From a virus (lineage: Duplodnaviria > Heunggongvirae > Uroviricota > Caudoviricetes), in IMG/VR virus record IMGVR_UViG_2778261591_000027, positions 1 to 5,237 of that record: a DNA stretch of 5,237 nucleotides; one strand, given 5' to 3'. A model generated the notes under the pieces. The model searched no databases. It saw only the letters and a program-made list of their open reading frames with translations, and had not been told where the DNA came from. This document shows, in pieces, positions 1-5,237 of this stretch. The position numbers and the translations under genes were made by a program. Within the stretch, counting starts at the first letter, position 1; each line of letters begins with the position of its first letter.

Positions 1-1305
1 CTATGCTTGTTTAATTACATCCGATCCCACAGCGTGGGGCATGGATGGGGCAAACTCACTCAATTTCTGGTTTAAAATGGATACCTGATCCTGATTGTTT
101 TCTGCCATCCACGATCCGTAAACGCGATAAACCATCTGAGCATCAGAGTGTCCCATTTGCTTCGCGATGAAGTTAGGGTTAGCTCCAGCGGTCAAAGACC
201 AACATGCATAAGTGTGCCTGGACTGATATGCTTTGCGGTAGCGAATCCCGGCGCGTCGCATTGCAGTTTCCCATGACTGATTAATCGACCCAACTGCATA
301 ATGGTGCCCGGCAAGGCCATTACGCGTAACGATTTGCGGATTGAAAACAAAAGTGCACGGATGCATTTCAGTTCGACCATACTCACGAAGTTTCACTTCA
401 ACCTGATACTGCTTACCAAGCCGTGTCATTTCAGCCTGATTCTTAAGCACGTCTATTGCAGGTTGAATAAGGTTGATAACACGGTTTGTTCCCGCTTCGG
501 TTTTTGGAAGAGTGAACTCTTTCGTTAATGTGTGGTTTCTTCTGATCGTCATTGTCCCAGCCTTCAGGTCTATATCTTCCCATGCCAGAGAAACCAACTC
601 TCCGTGGCGAACTCCCGTATAAACAGCCAGTGACCACATATTTTTTAATTGCTGATGCTTAAATGCGTTAATCAACCTGACAAATTCATCACGGGTTAAC
701 GGATCAGGTTCCGTTCGTGATCTCTTCAGTTGCGAAATGGCTGCGAACGGATTTTCTTTGATGTATCCGCTGTCGGCTGCGAACTGAAACATCCCCGCCA
801 TGGTGTTCATGTAGTTATTAACAGTTGGCACGGAACGTCCCTTAATGGGTGTTTTTTGCCCACGTTTCAGAACGTGATATCCGGTCAGCAAATCCTTTCG
901 TATGAACAGTAGCTCTTCCTGAGTCACAGCAGATGCAAGTCTGTTGCCTCCGATTCGGGGAACCATATTTCTTACAATGGAGCTGTAACGCCCCATCGCA
1001 TTGGTACTGATTTCCAGCTTTTTCAGATCCAGCCATTTCTCAGCCAGGTCTGCGACGGTAATTTCCTTACTTTCCGCACCAAATTTTCTCAGGTTGGGAG
1101 AGTCCGGAAACTGAGCGGCATAGTCGAAATTACCCGTCTTAATGGAAAAACAAACAGATGCTCGTAGCTCGCCAGCTATTTTCCTGTTTTTTGGTGTATC
1201 CGGCACACCGAGACTTTCCCGCACTCGTGTGCCTTTATACATGAACCATATGCGGAGTGATCCGCCATGGTTCTCAACGCCTGTTGGGTATGCTGTCTTA
1301 GCCAT
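1..1305 (-). CDS. int: Tyrosine-type site-specific integrase, 434 aa, lambda/Rac IntR-like with N-terminal arm-binding domain
   Basis: Complete ORF: ATG at 1303-1305 preceded by AGGAGGG (complement of 1310-1316); TAG stop at 1-3. N-terminus (GSLRIWFMYKGTRVRESLG) resembles arm-type DNA-binding domains of IntR-like integrases, from memory. C-terminus carries tyrosine-recombinase motifs (VRHGEL box I Arg; SRHTYACW; GHSDAQMVYRVY with the likely catalytic Tyr). Confidence 0.9.
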   Translation of the reverse strand: MAKTAYPTGVENHGGSLRIWFMYKGTRVRESLGVPDTPKNRKIAGELRASVCFSIKTGNFDYAAQFPDSPNLRKFGAESKEITVADLAEKWLDLKKLEISTNAMGRYSSIVRNMVPRIGGNRLASAVTQEELLFIRKDLLTGYHVLKRGQKTPIKGRSVPTVNNYMNTMAGMFQFAADSGYIKENPFAAISQLKRSRTEPDPLTRDEFVRLINAFKHQQLKNMWSLAVYTGVRHGELVSLAWEDIDLKAGTMTIRRNHTLTKEFTLPKTEAGTNRVINLIQPAIDVLKNQAEMTRLGKQYQVEVKLREYGRTEMHPCTFVFNPQIVTRNGLAGHHYAVGSINQSWETAMRRAGIRYRKAYQSRHTYACWSLTAGANPNFIAKQMGHSDAQMVYRVYGSWMAENNQDQVSILNQKLSEFAPSMPHAVGSDVIKQA

Positions 1306-1309
1306 TGTT

Positions 1310-1316
1310 CCCTCCT
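1310..1316 (-). promoter_or_regulatory. Shine-Dalgarno sequence (AGGAGGG) for int
   Basis: Plus-strand ccctcct at 1310-1316 is AGGAGGG on the minus strand, 4 nt upstream of the int ATG. Confidence 0.6.
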
Positions 1317-1350
1317 GACGCCCAAGAGCGCATTAAGCATAAACGGTTCT

Positions 1351-1596
1351 TCATCGACGCGCACCAGGCTGTTTTTTTGACATACTCTCAACCCACTGGT
1401 CGATAGCCTTGCGGTTATACATGCATTCGCTGTTTTCTTTTGGAATACCGTCCGGTGCAACATGGAGATATTCACGACCAACAAGCCAGGATTGTTTACG
1501 TGCTCTCTCTATGGTTCCTGGGCGTAAACCTGTAATTTCGATCAGTTTTTGCTCTGTCACCCAGTCGTTGGGCACAATTAAGTTAACTTCGCTCAT
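1351..1596 (-). CDS. xis: Excisionase (putative, small helix-turn-helix-like protein), 81 aa
   Basis: Small ORF immediately upstream of int on the same strand. ATG at 1594-1596 is preceded by GGAG with about 8 nt spacing. The in-frame upstream ATG at 1633-1635 has a poorly spaced ribosome-binding site, so the shorter start is preferred. Residues LIEITGLRPGTIERARK look like a DNA-binding helix-turn-helix, and size and position are typical for prophage Xis. Confidence 0.7.
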   Translation of the reverse strand: MSEVNLIVPNDWVTEQKLIEITGLRPGTIERARKQSWLVGREYLHVAPDGIPKENSECMYNRKAIDQWVESMSKKQPGARR

Positions 1597-1621
1597 TGTT
1601 TTCTCCGGTGCTGGAATGAAA

Positions 1622-1628
1622 GGGGGGG
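1622..1628. repeat. G7/C7 homopolymer tract in the intergenic region upstream of xis
   Basis: Seven consecutive G on the plus strand (C7 on the coding strand), 26 nt upstream of the preferred xis start, within the 73-nt gap between the 114-aa gene stop and xis. Confidence 0.5.
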
Positions 1629-1669
1629 TTAACATGCCTCATTGGGGTTGAGGCTGTGTGATTCCATGG

Positions 1670-2014
1670 TTAGTCCTTGCGTAGTTCGCTAATTCTTCTG
1701 TAAGTCTCTGGTGCTTTGTTCCCGTACGTCTTCATTTCAGACTTCAACAGAGCAACGAGTGAATCCCATTCGTTGAGGATTCCTTTGAATGCCGGAACGC
1801 GCTTTGCAACCTTGTCGAATGAATCCCTGATTTCTGGAATCTGCTCAACAAGTGCAACGCATCGCCGAAAGTCTGCTGCGTCATGGGGAGCGCCGAAGTG
1901 ATGACCATAGATATTCTTTTTCAGGCCACATGCGATTGAGGCAAGAGTTGCGCTACTGATGCCGACATCGCCAGTCGATTGCCATTTCAAAACCTTCATA
2001 GCCAAATCTGACAT
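1670..2014 (-). CDS. Hypothetical protein, 114 aa, function unknown
   Basis: ORF with ATG at 2012-2014 preceded by GGAGA (complement of 2022-2026) at 6-7 nt spacing; TAA stop at 1670-1672. No motif recognised by eye. Confidence 0.65.
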   Translation of the reverse strand: MSDLAMKVLKWQSTGDVGISSATLASIACGLKKNIYGHHFGAPHDAADFRRCVALVEQIPEIRDSFDKVAKRVPAFKGILNEWDSLVALLKSEMKTYGNKAPETYRRISELRKD

Positions 2015-2026
2015 TTCTTGTCTCCA

Positions 2027-2051
2027 TAAAACAAAACCCGCCGTAGCGAGT
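2027..2051 (-). terminator. Possible weak intrinsic terminator or attenuator hairpin between the ASCH gene and the 114-aa gene
   Basis: Minus-strand RNA 5'-CUCGC-UACG-GCGGG-UUUUGUUUU-3': a 5-bp stem (4 Watson-Crick pairs plus one G-U) closed by a UNCG-type tetraloop, followed directly by a U-rich tract. The stem is short and the U tract runs into the downstream ribosome-binding site, so this is tentative. Confidence 0.25.
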
Positions 2052-2086
2052 TCAGATAAAAGAAATCCCCGCGAGTTCGAGGATTG

Positions 2087-2371
2087 TTATTCATTGCCGA
2101 TATTCACCTTTATCGCGAACACCTTTACCGGTTTATCGCCGAAGTGCGGATGTGTGATTGTCTTGATTTCATATCCGTCATACGGAACATCAATTCTACG
2201 GCTGGAATCGTCGCGCTTCGGATATCCCTTTGTGATAATCAGGCGGTCATATTCCCGGAACATGATTCGCTTATTCCAGTAGCCATTACACAGGCGATAC
2301 TCTTCCGTTTTCTCTCCGCGAATCATGGCATCGAAAAATTCACCTTTAACGGCAAGTTGCAGGTTAGCCAC
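2087..2371 (-). CDS. ASCH (ASC-1 homology, PUA-like) domain protein, 94 aa
   Basis: GTG start at 2369-2371 preceded by a perfect AGGAGG (complement of 2378-2383) at 6 nt spacing; stop at 2087-2089. Contains RGEKTEEYR, matching the ASCH signature GxKxxExR, within a roughly 90-aa beta-rich small protein. Confidence 0.75.
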   Translation of the reverse strand: MANLQLAVKGEFFDAMIRGEKTEEYRLCNGYWNKRIMFREYDRLIITKGYPKRDDSSRRIDVPYDGYEIKTITHPHFGDKPVKVFAIKVNIGNE

Positions 2372-3038
2372 GGTTAACCTCCTGCGGCGGTTCTGGTAGA
2401 GGCATCCAGAACAAGGCGTTCCCTAACCACGATAAAGTGCCGTCGCTCAACTCCACGTATTCCCCTTGTACCTGTCCTGCCATATACTCGCCGTGCTTTG
2501 AATAAATTAAAATCCAATCATCTTGAGGGGGCATTCGCTCACTACAGCTTATCCAACCATCCGGAGTTACCGGAGAGTTGCCTGCCAGTCTACGCAAAAC
2601 AGCCTTAACAGCCTCAATACGGTCATCATCGCAATTTTCCAGCGTATCTATGCGGTCGAGCATGATGATGGCGTTATCAATATCAGGATTGCCGGTCCAC
2701 TCATTACCGCGATTGGATTCGGCAGCCTGGTTGCGCATAATCTCAGGCGTAAGCTCTTTGTAAGCATAAGCAAGAGGCTCTGATGCATTATCCGGCACAA
2801 CCGACGCAGGCGCGGCAGCATAAACAGGAATAACGTCCGCTTGCTCTTTATTGCTTTCATCCGTTAAAGCCCAGAATAATTTCCCGGCAGGATGTTTGAA
2901 AATATAAGCAACTGGATCTGCTTCCAGCGATGCCAGTGCAATTTCATAAGCCCGGCGTTCAATATTGTCTCGAACGTCCAGGCTGCTGATACGCTCTTTG
3001 ATTTCTTTAATCAGTTCTTTGTCGGTGAAAGTGGTCAT
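2364..3038 (-). CDS. Phage protein with C-terminal DUF551-like domain, 224 aa, acidic N-terminal region
   Basis: ATG at 3036-3038 preceded by AAGGAGAG (complement of 3043-3050); TAA at 2364-2366 overlaps the ASCH start by 8 nt. The C-terminal segment WISCSERMPPQDDWILIY...LFWMPLPEPP resembles the DUF551 family common in enterobacterial prophage early regions, from memory. Confidence 0.75.
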   Translation of the reverse strand: MTTFTDKELIKEIKERISSLDVRDNIERRAYEIALASLEADPVAYIFKHPAGKLFWALTDESNKEQADVIPVYAAAPASVVPDNASEPLAYAYKELTPEIMRNQAAESNRGNEWTGNPDIDNAIIMLDRIDTLENCDDDRIEAVKAVLRRLAGNSPVTPDGWISCSERMPPQDDWILIYSKHGEYMAGQVQGEYVELSDGTLSWLGNALFWMPLPEPPQEVNRG

Positions 3039-3039
3039 A

Positions 3040-3231
3040 TCACTCTCCTTTAGTGCGAAAGTGGTTTTTCCAGCGGTTTTGTGCTGCGCTTCTGTTTCGC
3101 CAGACACCGTAAAAACGAATAGAGGAACACCCCCTAAAACCCAGATATCTATAGTAAATAACAAGCCGATTTGAGATACGGATACGCTGCCCGGGCTTTG
3201 CTATCAGCATCTTTGCCTTACGATTTTTCAT
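3040..3231 (-). CDS. Small, very basic hypothetical protein, 63 aa (N-terminus MKNRKAK)
   Basis: ATG at 3229-3231 overlaps the TGA of the preceding small ORF (ATGA). Its own TGA at 3040-3042 lies 1 nt before the DUF551 ATG. The 3' end overlaps the DUF551 ribosome-binding site. Composition is extremely Arg/Lys-rich, so coding status is uncertain. Confidence 0.35.
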   Translation of the reverse strand: MKNRKAKMLIAKPGQRIRISNRLVIYYRYLGFRGCSSIRFYGVWRNRSAAQNRWKNHFRTKGE

Positions 3232-3233
3232 CG
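3211..3233. repeat. Copy B of a 23-bp imperfect direct repeat (20 of 23 identical) covering the start of the 63-aa ORF
   Basis: Plus-strand ctttgccttacgatttttcatcg versus ttttgctttacggtttttcatcg at 3384-3406. On the coding strand both read ATGAAAAAYCGTAARGCAAAR. Confidence 0.7.
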
Positions 3234-3404
3234 CACTGCGTACCCCTTCTCTCGTCTGTTCCGCGACGCGGTGGGTTTATAGTTAAATGCGAATACCACC
3301 CTACCATACATGCCGATCACCGCCCGTTTGTGATTGCTGATTGGTAGCTTCTCGTACCCCGTCGAACGCGATAAAAGAAGTAATTTTGCTTTACGGTTTT
3401 TCAT
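3228..3404 (-). CDS. Small basic hypothetical protein, 58 aa (N-terminus MKNRKAK)
   Basis: ATG at 3402-3404 preceded by GGGAGA (complement of 3413-3418) at 8 nt spacing. The start lies inside the last codons of the upstream 292-aa gene (14-nt overlap); TGA at 3228-3230. Confidence 0.4.
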   Translation of the reverse strand: MKNRKAKLLLLSRSTGYEKLPISNHKRAVIGMYGRVVFAFNYKPTASRNRREKGYAVR

Positions 3405-3406
3405 CG
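3384..3406. repeat. Copy A of the 23-bp imperfect direct repeat covering the start of the 58-aa ORF
   Basis: See copy B. The two copies are 173 bp apart and flanking sequence is unrelated. Confidence 0.7.
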
Positions 3407-4269
3407 TTTTGTTCTCCCGCGTCTCCTTTGATGCGAATGCCTGCGGCGCGCGGCACATTAACTTCCACGATGCGCACTGTTGGTTTGTACATCTCAATCG
3501 CTGTCAGCCAGTCAGCTCCTGTCATGCGCTTTTCCGCATCGCCATTAGTCCACTGAACCGGTACACCAATAGCCTTCATCGCGATTTCTATTTCCCCGGC
3601 GATGGCGCTTTTTCCGCAACCAGTAAAACCAGAAACAACGACAAGAACTTCACCTTTGGCTGGTTTTATTTCCCGTGCTTCCAGTTCTGCTATGCGCTTT
3701 TCTGATGCTTCAAGTAACGCCTGCTTATCGCGTAGCGCTTCTTCCAGTTCAGCAACATGGCATTCACTATCAATGAGGTTATTCTCTGCGGCTTCAAGCT
3801 TCTCGCGCATATCGTCAACGTACTCGACCAGAGAACCGCCAGCAGGAATTTCGCACTCCTCGACCAGTTGGAAGTAGATATCAGCTGCGGCCCGTGTGTT
3901 GCTATGCCTAGCGTCGCCCATCTCACCTTCACGAAGAGCATCGCGTTCGGCGGTAAGATTGGCTATCTTGCTGTCTTTGCCTTCCAGTTCAACGCGCAGC
4001 TTCCCTACCGTTAGCGCAATATCCTCGTTCTCCTGGTCGCGGGATTTGATGTATTGCTGGTTCCTTTCCCGTTCATCCAGCAGCGCCAGCACGGTTTCTG
4101 GTCCGGTCAGAAATTTGAAGGCGTTGAGCGCATCAATATCCACACCGTAATCTTTAAGTTCCTGTTCACTTAACAAATCATCATCAGCTGGCAACATTAA
4201 CAGGCGTTCCATTGCTGGAATTGCACGTTCCGCCGCCTCACGCAGTGCCTGGTAATTAATTTCGCTCAC
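3391..4269 (-). CDS. Coiled-coil phage protein, 292 aa, possibly ead/Ea22-like, with a C-terminal Walker A-like motif
   Basis: GTG start at 4267-4269 preceded by AAGGAGG (complement of 4276-4282) at 6 nt spacing and overlapping the upstream TGA (GTGA); TAA at 3391-3393. The N-terminal two thirds are heptad-like and E/R/L/A-rich. The motif GFTGCGKS (GxxGxGKS) follows a hydrophobic strand (EVLVVVS) at nt 3607-3630. The Ea22-like assignment is from memory and tentative. Confidence 0.7.
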   Translation of the reverse strand: MSEINYQALREAAERAIPAMERLLMLPADDDLLSEQELKDYGVDIDALNAFKFLTGPETVLALLDERERNQQYIKSRDQENEDIALTVGKLRVELEGKDSKIANLTAERDALREGEMGDARHSNTRAAADIYFQLVEECEIPAGGSLVEYVDDMREKLEAAENNLIDSECHVAELEEALRDKQALLEASEKRIAELEAREIKPAKGEVLVVVSGFTGCGKSAIAGEIEIAMKAIGVPVQWTNGDAEKRMTGADWLTAIEMYKPTVRIVEVNVPRAAGIRIKGDAGEQNDEKP

Positions 4270-4772
4270 TGGTTGCCTCCTTTGCGAAGCTGTTCCGCAC
4301 AATGCAGCAGGGCGTCCGTCGCTTCTTTCACCGTAACGATGTCGCCATCGTCCAGCCCGGCAACCGTCGCGTCCTTAACGAACACCGAGCAAAGGTCATT
4401 AAACGCCTGCGCCCGCACTTCAGCCAGGAAAGCGTCGGTGGCTGGGGTTTCGCTATGGTGTAGGGCATCGTTGATAATCATTGCAGCAACACCAGCCTGC
4501 CCTGCATCCGTGACCGACACATGCTCAAGAGTTACGGCCATTGCGTGTTTCAGCCCCGCATTCTCAGCGGCCAGCGCAGCGCACTTGGCTTCAATGTTGT
4601 CAATCGTGAGCCCGGCAGAACGACACTCACGCAACGACGTTTCAATTTTTGATTCAAGTTCACCGAACTTACGCACCAGATATTCAGCGTTTGTTTCGTT
4701 AACCTTTAAATCTCGTGGGAAGCATTTACCTTTCAGAAAACCATCCATCTCAATTAGTGACATTTGTTTCAT
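4266..4772 (-). CDS. Hypothetical protein, 168 aa (174 aa if the in-frame GTG at 4788-4790 is used)
   Basis: ATG at 4770-4772 overlaps the TGA of the upstream 54-aa ORF (ATGA) and has GGAG about 9 nt upstream. The stop at 4266-4268 overlaps the GTG start of the 292-aa gene. Alanine-rich with amphipathic segments; no motif recognised. Confidence 0.65.
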
Positions 4773-4933
4773 TTCTTCCCACTCCGCCACATCGCATTCA
4801 GATATTTGTTTTGATTTACTGATGGAAAAGAATTTCTCTTAAGCAATTCCTCTCTCGATGGCATTGGCTTTACGCGTTGGCGAATAATCATTTCTGCCGG
4901 AAGAATGCCGGGATTGTATGCAAGTCCTCTCAT
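4769..4933 (-). CDS. Small hypothetical protein, 54 aa
   Basis: ATG at 4931-4933 preceded by GAGG (complement of 4942-4945), which sits just after the upstream TGA; the stop overlaps the next start. The longer six-frame ORF (to 5083) has no ribosome-binding site and overlaps the 97-aa gene, so it is rejected. Confidence 0.45.
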
Positions 4934-4943
4934 GGTAAATTCC

Positions 4944-5237
4944 TCAGTCATTACTGATAGCGCCATAGCGTGAGCGGTAATTACGCAGGCGCGGGTCAAT
5001 TTCAGGGAAGTGGGTATATGTGGCTTTGCGGAATGGTCGGATTGATGTCTGGTAAATTCGCTCGCGTTCTTCTTTCTCTGCAAGCCATATGCAATGGCGA
5101 AATTCCTTTTCCTCTTTCGTTTCCTGCGGTAGCGACATTATCAGGTCGTAGTTTTTTCTGAATTTATCCAGCACCTCCGATACGGAATTGCCGGAACAGC
5201 GGCGCACGTCATCCGCACCATACAAAGGCGCTGGCAT
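4944..5237 (-). CDS. Hypothetical protein, 97 aa, with the start codon at the window edge
   Basis: ORF begins with ATG at 5235-5237, the last three bases of the window, and ends with TGA at 4944-4946. Upstream signals cannot be assessed, and the true start could lie further upstream outside the window. Confidence 0.55.

Follow-up and report, generated by a model that had tools for sequence, protein, structure and literature searches.

Can a Walker A motif that is followed by only 71 residues belong to a functional domain? We addressed this question for a gene of a Caudoviricetes virus (IMG/VR record IMGVR_UViG_2778261591_000027), of which positions 1 to 5,237, a stretch of 5,237 nucleotides (nt) hereafter called the window, were analyzed. 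The target gene encodes a 292-amino-acid (aa) Ead/Ea22-like protein, and an initial annotation made from the DNA letters alone had described a GxxGxGKS pattern in its C-terminal region as either a minimal binding module or a chance match. We found that the pattern belongs to a small module that is conserved under purifying selection and that occurs both alone and fused to other protein segments. Judged by sequence, a minimal phosphate- or nucleotide-binding module appears to be the best reading. The features on which the argument turns are listed here.

3391..4269, minus strand: target gene, 292-aa Ead/Ea22-like protein, GTG start at 4269 and TAA stop at 3391-3393
3451..3654, minus strand: mini P-loop module, residues 206-273, delimited by column conservation, stand-alone forms, dN/dS and AlphaFold2 (AF2) helices
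3607..3630, minus strand: Walker A motif G214-F-T-G-C-G-K220-S221, preceded by EVLVVVS and with 71 residues after it
3538..3546, minus strand: N242-G-D244 at the end of the second extended segment, aligned by hhalign with the D-G-D loop of APS kinase
3508..3534, minus strand: E246-K-R-M-T-G-A-D-W254, the family-specific EKxxTxADW, with E246 and W254 invariant in all branches
3463..3480, minus strand: T264-V-R-I-V-E269, hydrophobic strand with an invariant terminal Glu, Walker-B-like (hhhhE)

The Walker A motif is conserved and under purifying selection

Translation of nt 3607-3630 agrees with the GxxGxGKS described initially, and conservation shows that the pattern is genuine. Within EVLVVVS-GFTGCGKS-AIAGEIEIAMKA, Walker A is located between a hydrophobic strand and a helix, an arrangement conserved in homologs of all branches. 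With residues 199-292 as query, phmmer was run exhaustively on 1.84 billion cluster representatives (clusters at 50% identity) and matched 443 clusters at E<=1e-3, 352 of them at E<=1e-10, always over the same ~72 residues, and a profile of divergent members retrieved 612 proteins. GxxGxGKS was present in 145 of the 148 cluster representatives checked and was also invariant in the most divergent homologs, so that conservation of the glycines and the lysine, which had been proposed beforehand as a check, is borne out. Among enterobacterial alleles, the ratio of nonsynonymous to synonymous substitution rates (dN/dS) of the module was 0.018-0.071; synonymous sites were near saturation, and these values come from unsaturated comparisons. 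When the target protein was shuffled 200,000 times, the generic [AG]xxxxGK[ST] appeared in 1.4% of the shuffles and the strict GxxGxGKS in 0.015%. Since the motif is conserved to this extent and the module is under purifying selection, a chance match is excluded.

Module extent and invariant residues

Conservation sets in sharply at G206 and ends at P273. The predicted order between these limits is an extended segment, the Walker A loop, helix 220-233, a second extended segment, helices 244-249 and 254-261, and an extended segment that runs to E269. The region had been judged too short for a canonical P-loop NTPase domain, and we agree: the ~68 residues leave room for at most three strands, and the three-layer alpha/beta/alpha fold with its parallel sheet of at least five strands is not present. 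The shortest stand-alone proteins have only 2-3 residues after the Glu equivalent to E269, and the target protein ends 23 residues past it.

In the most divergent comparison, which spans jumbo-phage, stand-alone, N-terminal and C-terminal forms, the invariant residues are G214, G217, G219, K220, S221, A222, G225, G235, E246, W254 and E269. An alignment of 99 sequences adds a second tier, with G225 and E226 (of a GEIEI motif in helix 1), P263 and V265 invariant and I227, E228, I229, V238, K247, T250, A252, D253 and Y261 conserved at 90% or more. No clear Walker B had been seen initially, but this holds only in part: V265-R-I-V-E269 is found in all branches as a hydrophobic strand with an invariant Glu and is a candidate Walker B, and an N or D is kept at or just after position 242 in other branches (the register is approximate). 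The G-D that follows N242 is specific to the enterobacterial/gamma-type branch.

Relation to APS kinase and other P-loop families

We found no entry describing the module in Pfam, NCBIfam, PHROG or the PDB, and the PHROGs that contain it are all of 'unknown function'. The best P-loop family in Pfam and NCBIfam was APS_kinase, at 15.7 bits against a cut-off of 21.1; further sub-threshold matches were to AAA_16, ParA/MinD-type proteins and other nucleotide kinases, with the NCBIfam matches far under cut-off. The PDB sequences matched by the family profile were all P-loop proteins aligned at Walker A, again sub-threshold, and included the designed 'phosphate-loop protein' 6c2u (E 0.011-0.037) and the de novo ATPase 9jix (PL2x4_2; E 0.022-0.046, profile positions 7-80). 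The whole target protein gave no significant match among PDB sequences.

Alignment of the family profile with E. coli CysC by hhalign reached a probability of 95.6-95.9% over 37-40 columns at ~35% identity (with a CysC sequence entered by hand and a pairwise E-value of ~1e-8). Twenty versions of CysC shuffled outside the Walker octamer reached 23-63%, and among other proteins GntK reached 84%, AroK 61%, H-Ras 48%, MinD 7.5% and Adk 3%. Since CysC scores above both its shuffled versions and the other P-loop proteins, the first ~37-40 residues of the module are specifically APS-kinase-like, beyond Walker A alone. The likeness to APS kinase (CysC, PF01583) consists of strand 1, GxxGxGKS, helix 1 (AG..E..), strand 2 and an [N/D]GD, at matching distances in the two. 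On the other hand, APS kinase has ~170-200 residues where the module has ~68, and the module lacks its LID, its strands 4-5 and its APS-binding motifs. The second half of the module (EKxxTxADW...YKPxVxIVE) has no reliable APS kinase counterpart. Past column 49, the CysC alignment is of low confidence, with module strand 3 falling on APS kinase strand 3 or 4, and we did not use it as evidence.

In a 519-aa protein of a Dehalococcoidales metagenome-assembled genome (MAG; L020, 4001-4057), an unrelated N-terminal region precedes a full-length P-loop kinase domain, and a 19-residue stretch, TSGLTGCGKSAVAGE..., is shared with the module. In its Walker A and helix 1, the module thus has the sequence of ordinary small-molecule kinases.

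Structure prediction

Two AF2 monomer models were obtained, the first from 34 sequences (predicted local distance difference test [pLDDT] 76.6, predicted template modeling score [pTM] 0.60) and the second from 99 diverse sequences including stand-alone forms (pLDDT 83.8, pTM 0.72). Both contain helices 220-233, ~244-249 and 254-261, and in both an extended segment leads into a non-helical Gly-rich loop that gives way to helix 1 precisely at K220, which is the P-loop arrangement. DSSP assigned zero beta-strands and no sheet in either model, and neither matched a known fold. In the structure check suggested initially, the motif was thus not placed in a non-loop context, and phosphate-binding geometry was neither confirmed nor refuted. 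A sheet-less monomer model would be expected if the module needs partners to build its sheet.

The module occurs alone and in many protein contexts

Of 5426 complete E. coli genomes, 364 contain module DNA, and 80 of the places lie on plasmids. When one genome per species was scanned, we found the module in Enterobacterales, in Betaproteobacteria (Methyloversatilis, Pandoraea, Sulfuriferula, Burkholderiales) and in Alphaproteobacteria (Methylobacterium, Mesorhizobium, Acetobacteraceae). A word-indexed search with the most divergent (jumbo-phage) module gave zero matches. In Ea22-like and many other proteins the module is C-terminal, whereas it stands at the N-terminus of mosaic proteins of 260-465 aa (P0200, P0207) and of gp37 of Burkholderia phage BcepC6B. 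Jumbo phages of Burkholderia and Ralstonia have it inside proteins of 346-481 aa. Its fusion partners are Ea22 N-termini, zinc ribbons, Lar restriction-alleviation domains, DUF4406 and unknown domains, and the Ead_Ea22 domain was found in only 28 of 149 representatives.

Proteins of 71-90 aa that consist of the module only, with no more than 12 residues before it and 15 after, account for 84 of the best 120 divergent-branch matches; one example is P0272, of 72 aa, MSEITVTVSGPVGCGKSAIAGEIEIAMKALGVPVRYADEAAALSEKRMTHADWQGYLEMYQPSVVLVEKIER. Such stand-alone forms occur in alpha- and betaproteobacterial prophages. Since most of these best matches are module-only and the module takes varied positions in other proteins, it is a complete small protein that has been repeatedly fused to other segments and not a truncated remnant. 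What had been described initially as a compact C-terminal region is an autonomous unit.

The mosaic proteins with an N-terminal module (P0200, P0202, P0204, P0206, P0207, P0209, P0210, P0219, P0223, P0240, P0255 and P0264; also locus L004, 6001-7086) have variable segments divided by the recurring linkers AARQPVGEPV, SAQPSPGGQ and PAQAVDLG and by a C-terminal DSQAVGNG/K, and these repeated linkers may be recombination points for segment shuffling. In BcepC6B gp37 (L001, 2914-3513), the C-terminal ~100 residues past the module match phrog_6628, 9434, 9763, 14548 and 19550, all of unknown function; phrog_14548 and 19550 are also matched by the N-terminal part of the target protein, and a pool of segments seems to be common to very different phages. 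A 3030-nt scaffold of a MAG named 'Collinsella sp.' (L008), from an actinobacterial bin, encodes a module with 98% identity to that of E. coli and is most likely a mis-binned enterobacterial phage contig.

Comparison with Ea22 proteins

Outside the module, the target protein is built like an Ea22 protein, with the following parts.

3904..4266, minus strand: Pfam Ead_Ea22 domain (PF13935), residues 2-122, comprising the N-terminal region and the first heptad-like stretch
3661..3828, minus strand: residues 148-203, a Gly/Pro-poor acidic heptad-like helix by heptad scan and composition
3394..3450, minus strand: variable low-confidence tail, residues 274-292, RAAGIRIKGDAGEQNDEKP, with pLDDT <50 and variable columns

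The match to PF13935 (108 bits against a gathering cut-off of 27, E 7.5e-31) upholds the ead/Ea22-like identity that had been proposed. The first ~200 residues had been described as charge-rich and heptad-like; residues 1-203 are indeed rich in charges (36% DEKR, net charge -24), but a clear heptad-like pattern is confined to residues ~78-112 and 148-196. The helix at residues 148-203 is a probable coiled-coil stalk on the basis of its sequence. It overlaps a phrog_34708 match at residues 151-201 and ends in a recurrent junction, RIAELEAREIKPAK, that is also found in P0142, L008 and L009.

Lambda Ea22 is pro-lysogenic and forms a tetramer through its coiled coil, with a dimeric C-terminal domain (CTD) of unique fold (Goddard et al. 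2024, PMC10834534), and the Ea22 of P27 is likewise a tetramer (PMC10834534). The lambda CTD is a beta-beta-alpha-beta-beta-alpha domain without a nucleotide motif, Ea22 variants V1-V3 of Shiga toxin (Stx) phages bear other CTDs, and the CTDs, which differ between variants, are thought to be portable ligand- or partner-binding domains (PMC10834534). The target protein resembles lambda Ea22 and Stx V1-V3 in its N-terminal Ead_Ea22 region, its central helical/coiled-coil stalk, its early-left exo-xis-type site between recombination/anti-RecBCD genes and xis-int, and its mosaic build with a swappable CTD. It differs in that its CTD is the Walker A module and not the lambda CTD (the PDB copy was not checked for a lambda CTD entry) nor, as far as tested, the DUF551-type V2 domain; since CTDs differ between Ea22 variants, this does not exclude membership of the family. 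A tblastn search of the module against 50,697 phage records matched 27, and none of these is a Stx phage of Table 1 in PMC10834534. On these grounds, the module appears to be a fourth, undescribed type of Ea22 CTD.

A proposed oligomeric phosphate-binding module and its alternatives

Together, these findings lead us to favor, with moderate confidence, a mini P-loop domain that depends on oligomerization and would bind a ligand with phosphate groups, probably Mg-NTP (NTP, nucleoside triphosphate), and that would be presented in multiple copies on an Ea22-type stalk early in infection. The module lacks strands 4-5, the LID and a substrate/base-binding region, and it can therefore not be a conventional kinase or NTPase. 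From the comparisons above, we infer a fold, a mode of assembly, a ligand and a biological role as follows. The module would derive from the N-terminal third of an APS-kinase-type P-loop kinase and would have become autonomous and horizontally shuffled. It would retain strands 1 and 2 with the Walker A loop and helix 1 between them and, where strand 2 ends, an acidic or amide residue; the family-specific helix (EKxxTxADW) and a third strand that ends in the invariant Glu would cap this unit. K220 and S221 would bind the ligand, with the N/D near 242, E246 and E269 placed around the metal; the ligand would most likely be Mg-NTP, with pyrophosphate, polyphosphate or nucleic-acid phosphate as further candidates. 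The module would be competent only as an oligomer: in the target protein, two to four copies would be joined by the Ea22-type coiled-coil stalk, and stand-alone forms would self-associate. The ligand-bound head could then act on a host or phage target, and since the gene lies in the early-left (pL) operon between abc2 and xis-int, this action would fall early in infection.

The tetramers of lambda and P27 Ea22 and the dimeric lambda CTD (PMC10834534) speak for assembly into oligomers. A beta-(P-loop)-alpha-beta unit whose second strand has a metal-ligating Asp at its tip is considered the core of the P-loop lineage (PMC7758060), and designed P-loop polypeptides of 40-110 residues bind NTP, polyphosphate and single-stranded DNA only as oligomers (bioRxiv 10.1101/2020.07.30.228619). 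The Tawfik-lab protein 6c2u, the 40-residue prototypes and PL2x4_2 (9jix) resemble the module as very small beta-(P-loop)-alpha units; the family profile has its best PDB sequence matches in 6c2u and 9jix, though sub-threshold, and their working only as oligomers is the behavior that we propose for the module. They differ in being laboratory constructs, whereas the module is a natural family with strong purifying selection and extra invariant motifs.

Several observations weigh against a phosphate-binding oligomer. The P-loop matches in Pfam, NCBIfam and the PDB are all sub-threshold and lie mainly over the Walker A strand-loop-helix, and the CysC alignment used a sequence entered by hand and a pairwise E-value. 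The stand-alone branch does not keep the G-D of N-G-D, and polar residues alternate with apolar ones in its strand 1 (EITVTVSG), in contrast to canonical P-loop NTPases, whose central strand is fully buried. Literature searches on Ea22 with P-loop or anti-defense functions and on minimal natural P-loops found no account of such a module: PMC10834534 makes no mention of ATP, Walker or kinase, and PMC8614690 does not describe the module.

The strongest competitor, which we nevertheless regard as unlikely, is that the module is a protein-protein interaction head with a structural Walker-A-like loop, which binds a conserved host or phage protein and has no nucleotide or phosphate ligand. Such a head would fit the conservation of nearly the whole module surface (GEIEI, EKxxTxADW, YKP), which suits a tight interface, and the lack of base-recognition elements; the AF2 models, with neither a P-loop sheet nor a fold match, also fit it, and a similar role has been proposed for other variable Ea22 CTDs (PMC10834534). 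However, G214, G217, G219, K220 and S221 do not vary between enterobacterial prophages and Ralstonia jumbo phages, which are ~35% identical overall in the module, and in these jumbo phages GEIEI and EKxxTxADW have diverged. Degenerate P-loops that are past nucleotide binding usually lose the Lys and the Ser/Thr. The residues of the module that survive universally (Walker A, E246 and E269) are those expected of a phosphate/metal site.

Less probable still is a decoy or poison subunit, derived from an APS-kinase-type kinase, that would co-assemble with a full-length host P-loop protein (CysC or a defense ATPase/kinase) and inactivate or redirect it. This idea would account for the specificity of the APS kinase similarity, which extends through helix 1, strand 2 and the DGD loop, for a module that is a truncation of a kinase core, and for its place in early accessory strings of anti-host genes, here beside abc2 (anti-RecBCD) and elsewhere fused to or near Lar domains. 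On the other hand, identity to E. coli CysC is only ~35% over 37 residues, the module is equally conserved in hosts with a divergent CysC or NodQ, no conserved genomic partner was found, and nothing indicates hetero-oligomerization. Nor did the module match any defense profile in PADLOC-DB, where E-values reached only 0.007-0.09; these weak matches were to LmuB over the coiled coil of the target protein and to AriAB, HEC-01A and SspF over short N-terminal regions of a stand-alone protein and BcepC6B gp37.

A chance Walker A look-alike or a truncated or pseudogenized kinase remnant with no function of its own, although compatible with the frequency of generic Walker A motifs in shuffles and with the full 879-nt mosaic gene being found at 80% coverage or more in only 5 of the 5426 complete E. 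coli genomes, is effectively refuted by the rarity of the strict motif in shuffles, by its near invariance across the 443 clusters and 612 divergent-branch proteins, by a dN/dS of 0.02-0.07, by the abundance of the module itself in E. coli, by its complete stand-alone genes in alpha- and betaproteobacterial prophages, and by homologs that are intact open reading frames (ORFs) in operon context, which argues against annotation artifacts.

Implications of the proposed phosphate-binding module

Extending the favored phosphate-binding reading, we tentatively propose a natural P-loop family of ~70 residues whose oligomers would form an Mg-NTP or polyphosphate site and which, alone or on stalks such as Ea22, would serve proteobacterial temperate phages as an early ligand-dependent switch or sequestering head against a host process, possibly one of defense or signaling. 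If true, nature would have its own version of the oligomeric beta-(P-loop)-alpha prototypes with which the origin of P-loop NTPases has been modeled in the laboratory. How small a P-loop scaffold can be has so far been addressed only with designed polypeptides, and a natural protein of 71-90 residues with a perfect Walker A under purifying selection bears on this question. To our knowledge, the module would be the smallest natural Walker A domain.

Ea22 influences the lysis-lysogeny decision in lambda and Stx phages, and is not known to have a biochemical activity; the Ea22-like form, widespread through the module in E. coli, offers a chemical handle in its Walker A loop and invariant acidic residues. 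The P-loop motif and Ea22-like proteins were known already, and what is new is a constrained ~70-residue Walker A module, stand-alone or fused, that has had no family, structure or literature. The module is currently labeled 'ead/Ea22-like', 'hypothetical' or with spurious kinase and ATPase names, and it merits a family definition of its own. It also resembles the mosaic or 'polyvalent' early proteins of temperate phages in being shuffled among many partners within strings of accessory early genes, and differs from them in having no known anti-defense activity and no PADLOC match.

Genomic context of the target gene and its homologs

All genes in the window are on the minus strand; they belong to a lambdoid/P22-like prophage of E. 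coli and make up the distal portion of its early-left (pL) operon. The target gene is flanked by the following features.

1-1305, minus strand: integrase
1351-1635, minus strand: excisionase
between the excisionase and the phrog_625 (ASCH) protein, minus strand: phrog_1229 protein
between the phrog_1229 protein and the DUF551 gene, minus strand: phrog_625 (ASCH) protein
2364-3041, minus strand: DUF551 protein, 225 aa, intact ORF with DUF551 at residues 162-220
3231-3404 and 3043-3231, minus strand: two small phrog_1380 ORFs of 58 and 63 aa, between the target and DUF551 genes
4266-4790, minus strand: phrog_614 protein, 174 aa, E 3.5e-59, intact ORF
4276..4281, minus strand: Shine-Dalgarno AGGAGG, 6 nt 5' of the target GTG, read from the sequence
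4944-5237, minus strand: abc2 (anti-RecBCD)

The start of the target gene overlaps the stop of the upstream phrog_614 gene as GTGA. The target protein is 100% identical to RefSeq coding sequence WP_095794603.1, an 'ead/Ea22-like family protein' of E. coli OkiPb01711, whose prophage is integrated beside fliE and has cI, N, sieB, kil and erf upstream. The prophage order is cI-N-sieB-kil-erf-?-abc2-DUF2737-...-target-DUF551-ASCH-?-xis-int, an early-left (exo-xis type) region.

At the loci examined, the module gene is part of a series of small early or accessory phage genes that run in one direction and often overlap. Its place is frequently directly upstream of xis-int or close to replication/recombination genes. 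Lar restriction-alleviation domains and zinc ribbons occur occasionally as fusions or neighbors, and no partner is conserved among these loci. Three Achromobacter prophages (L023, L024 and L025, each 6001-6961) have a stand-alone module gene of 89 aa that shares 11 nt with the gene after it. In L023 and L025, this second gene encodes an N6/N4 DNA methyltransferase; in L024 it is an ORF of 141 aa, behind which lies a methyltransferase fragment. All three then have an excisionase (DUF1233 in L024 and L025, an HTH_17 protein in L023), with an integrase in L024 and L025, and the upstream recombination genes differ among the three prophages (RdgC; Erf and YqaJ; RecT). In BcepC6B, a DNA methyltransferase lies four genes downstream of gp37. 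We rejected the methyltransferase as an independent partner, the Achromobacter cases being one shared block with an identical module protein, and this neighborhood may reflect such a block rather than a functional link.

The identical RefSeq record represents the phrog_614 and DUF551 genes, intact in the window, only by short pseudogene fragments labeled 'incomplete, partial' and by a 56-aa hypothetical protein, and such mosaic early genes seem to be under-annotated by the pipeline. The same record has no annotation at the two tandem phrog_1380 ORFs (E 3e-23 and 5.5e-13), both of which start with MKNRKAK. A 22-nt direct repeat (D1) at 3212-3233 and 3385-3406, with copies 91% identical and 173 nt apart, holds the start of one of these ORFs in each copy. 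The last codons of the target gene also fall within the repeat, and the copy at 3385-3406 (ATGAAAAACCGTAA), which spans the target stop codon as well, looks like a module-boundary or recombination junction.

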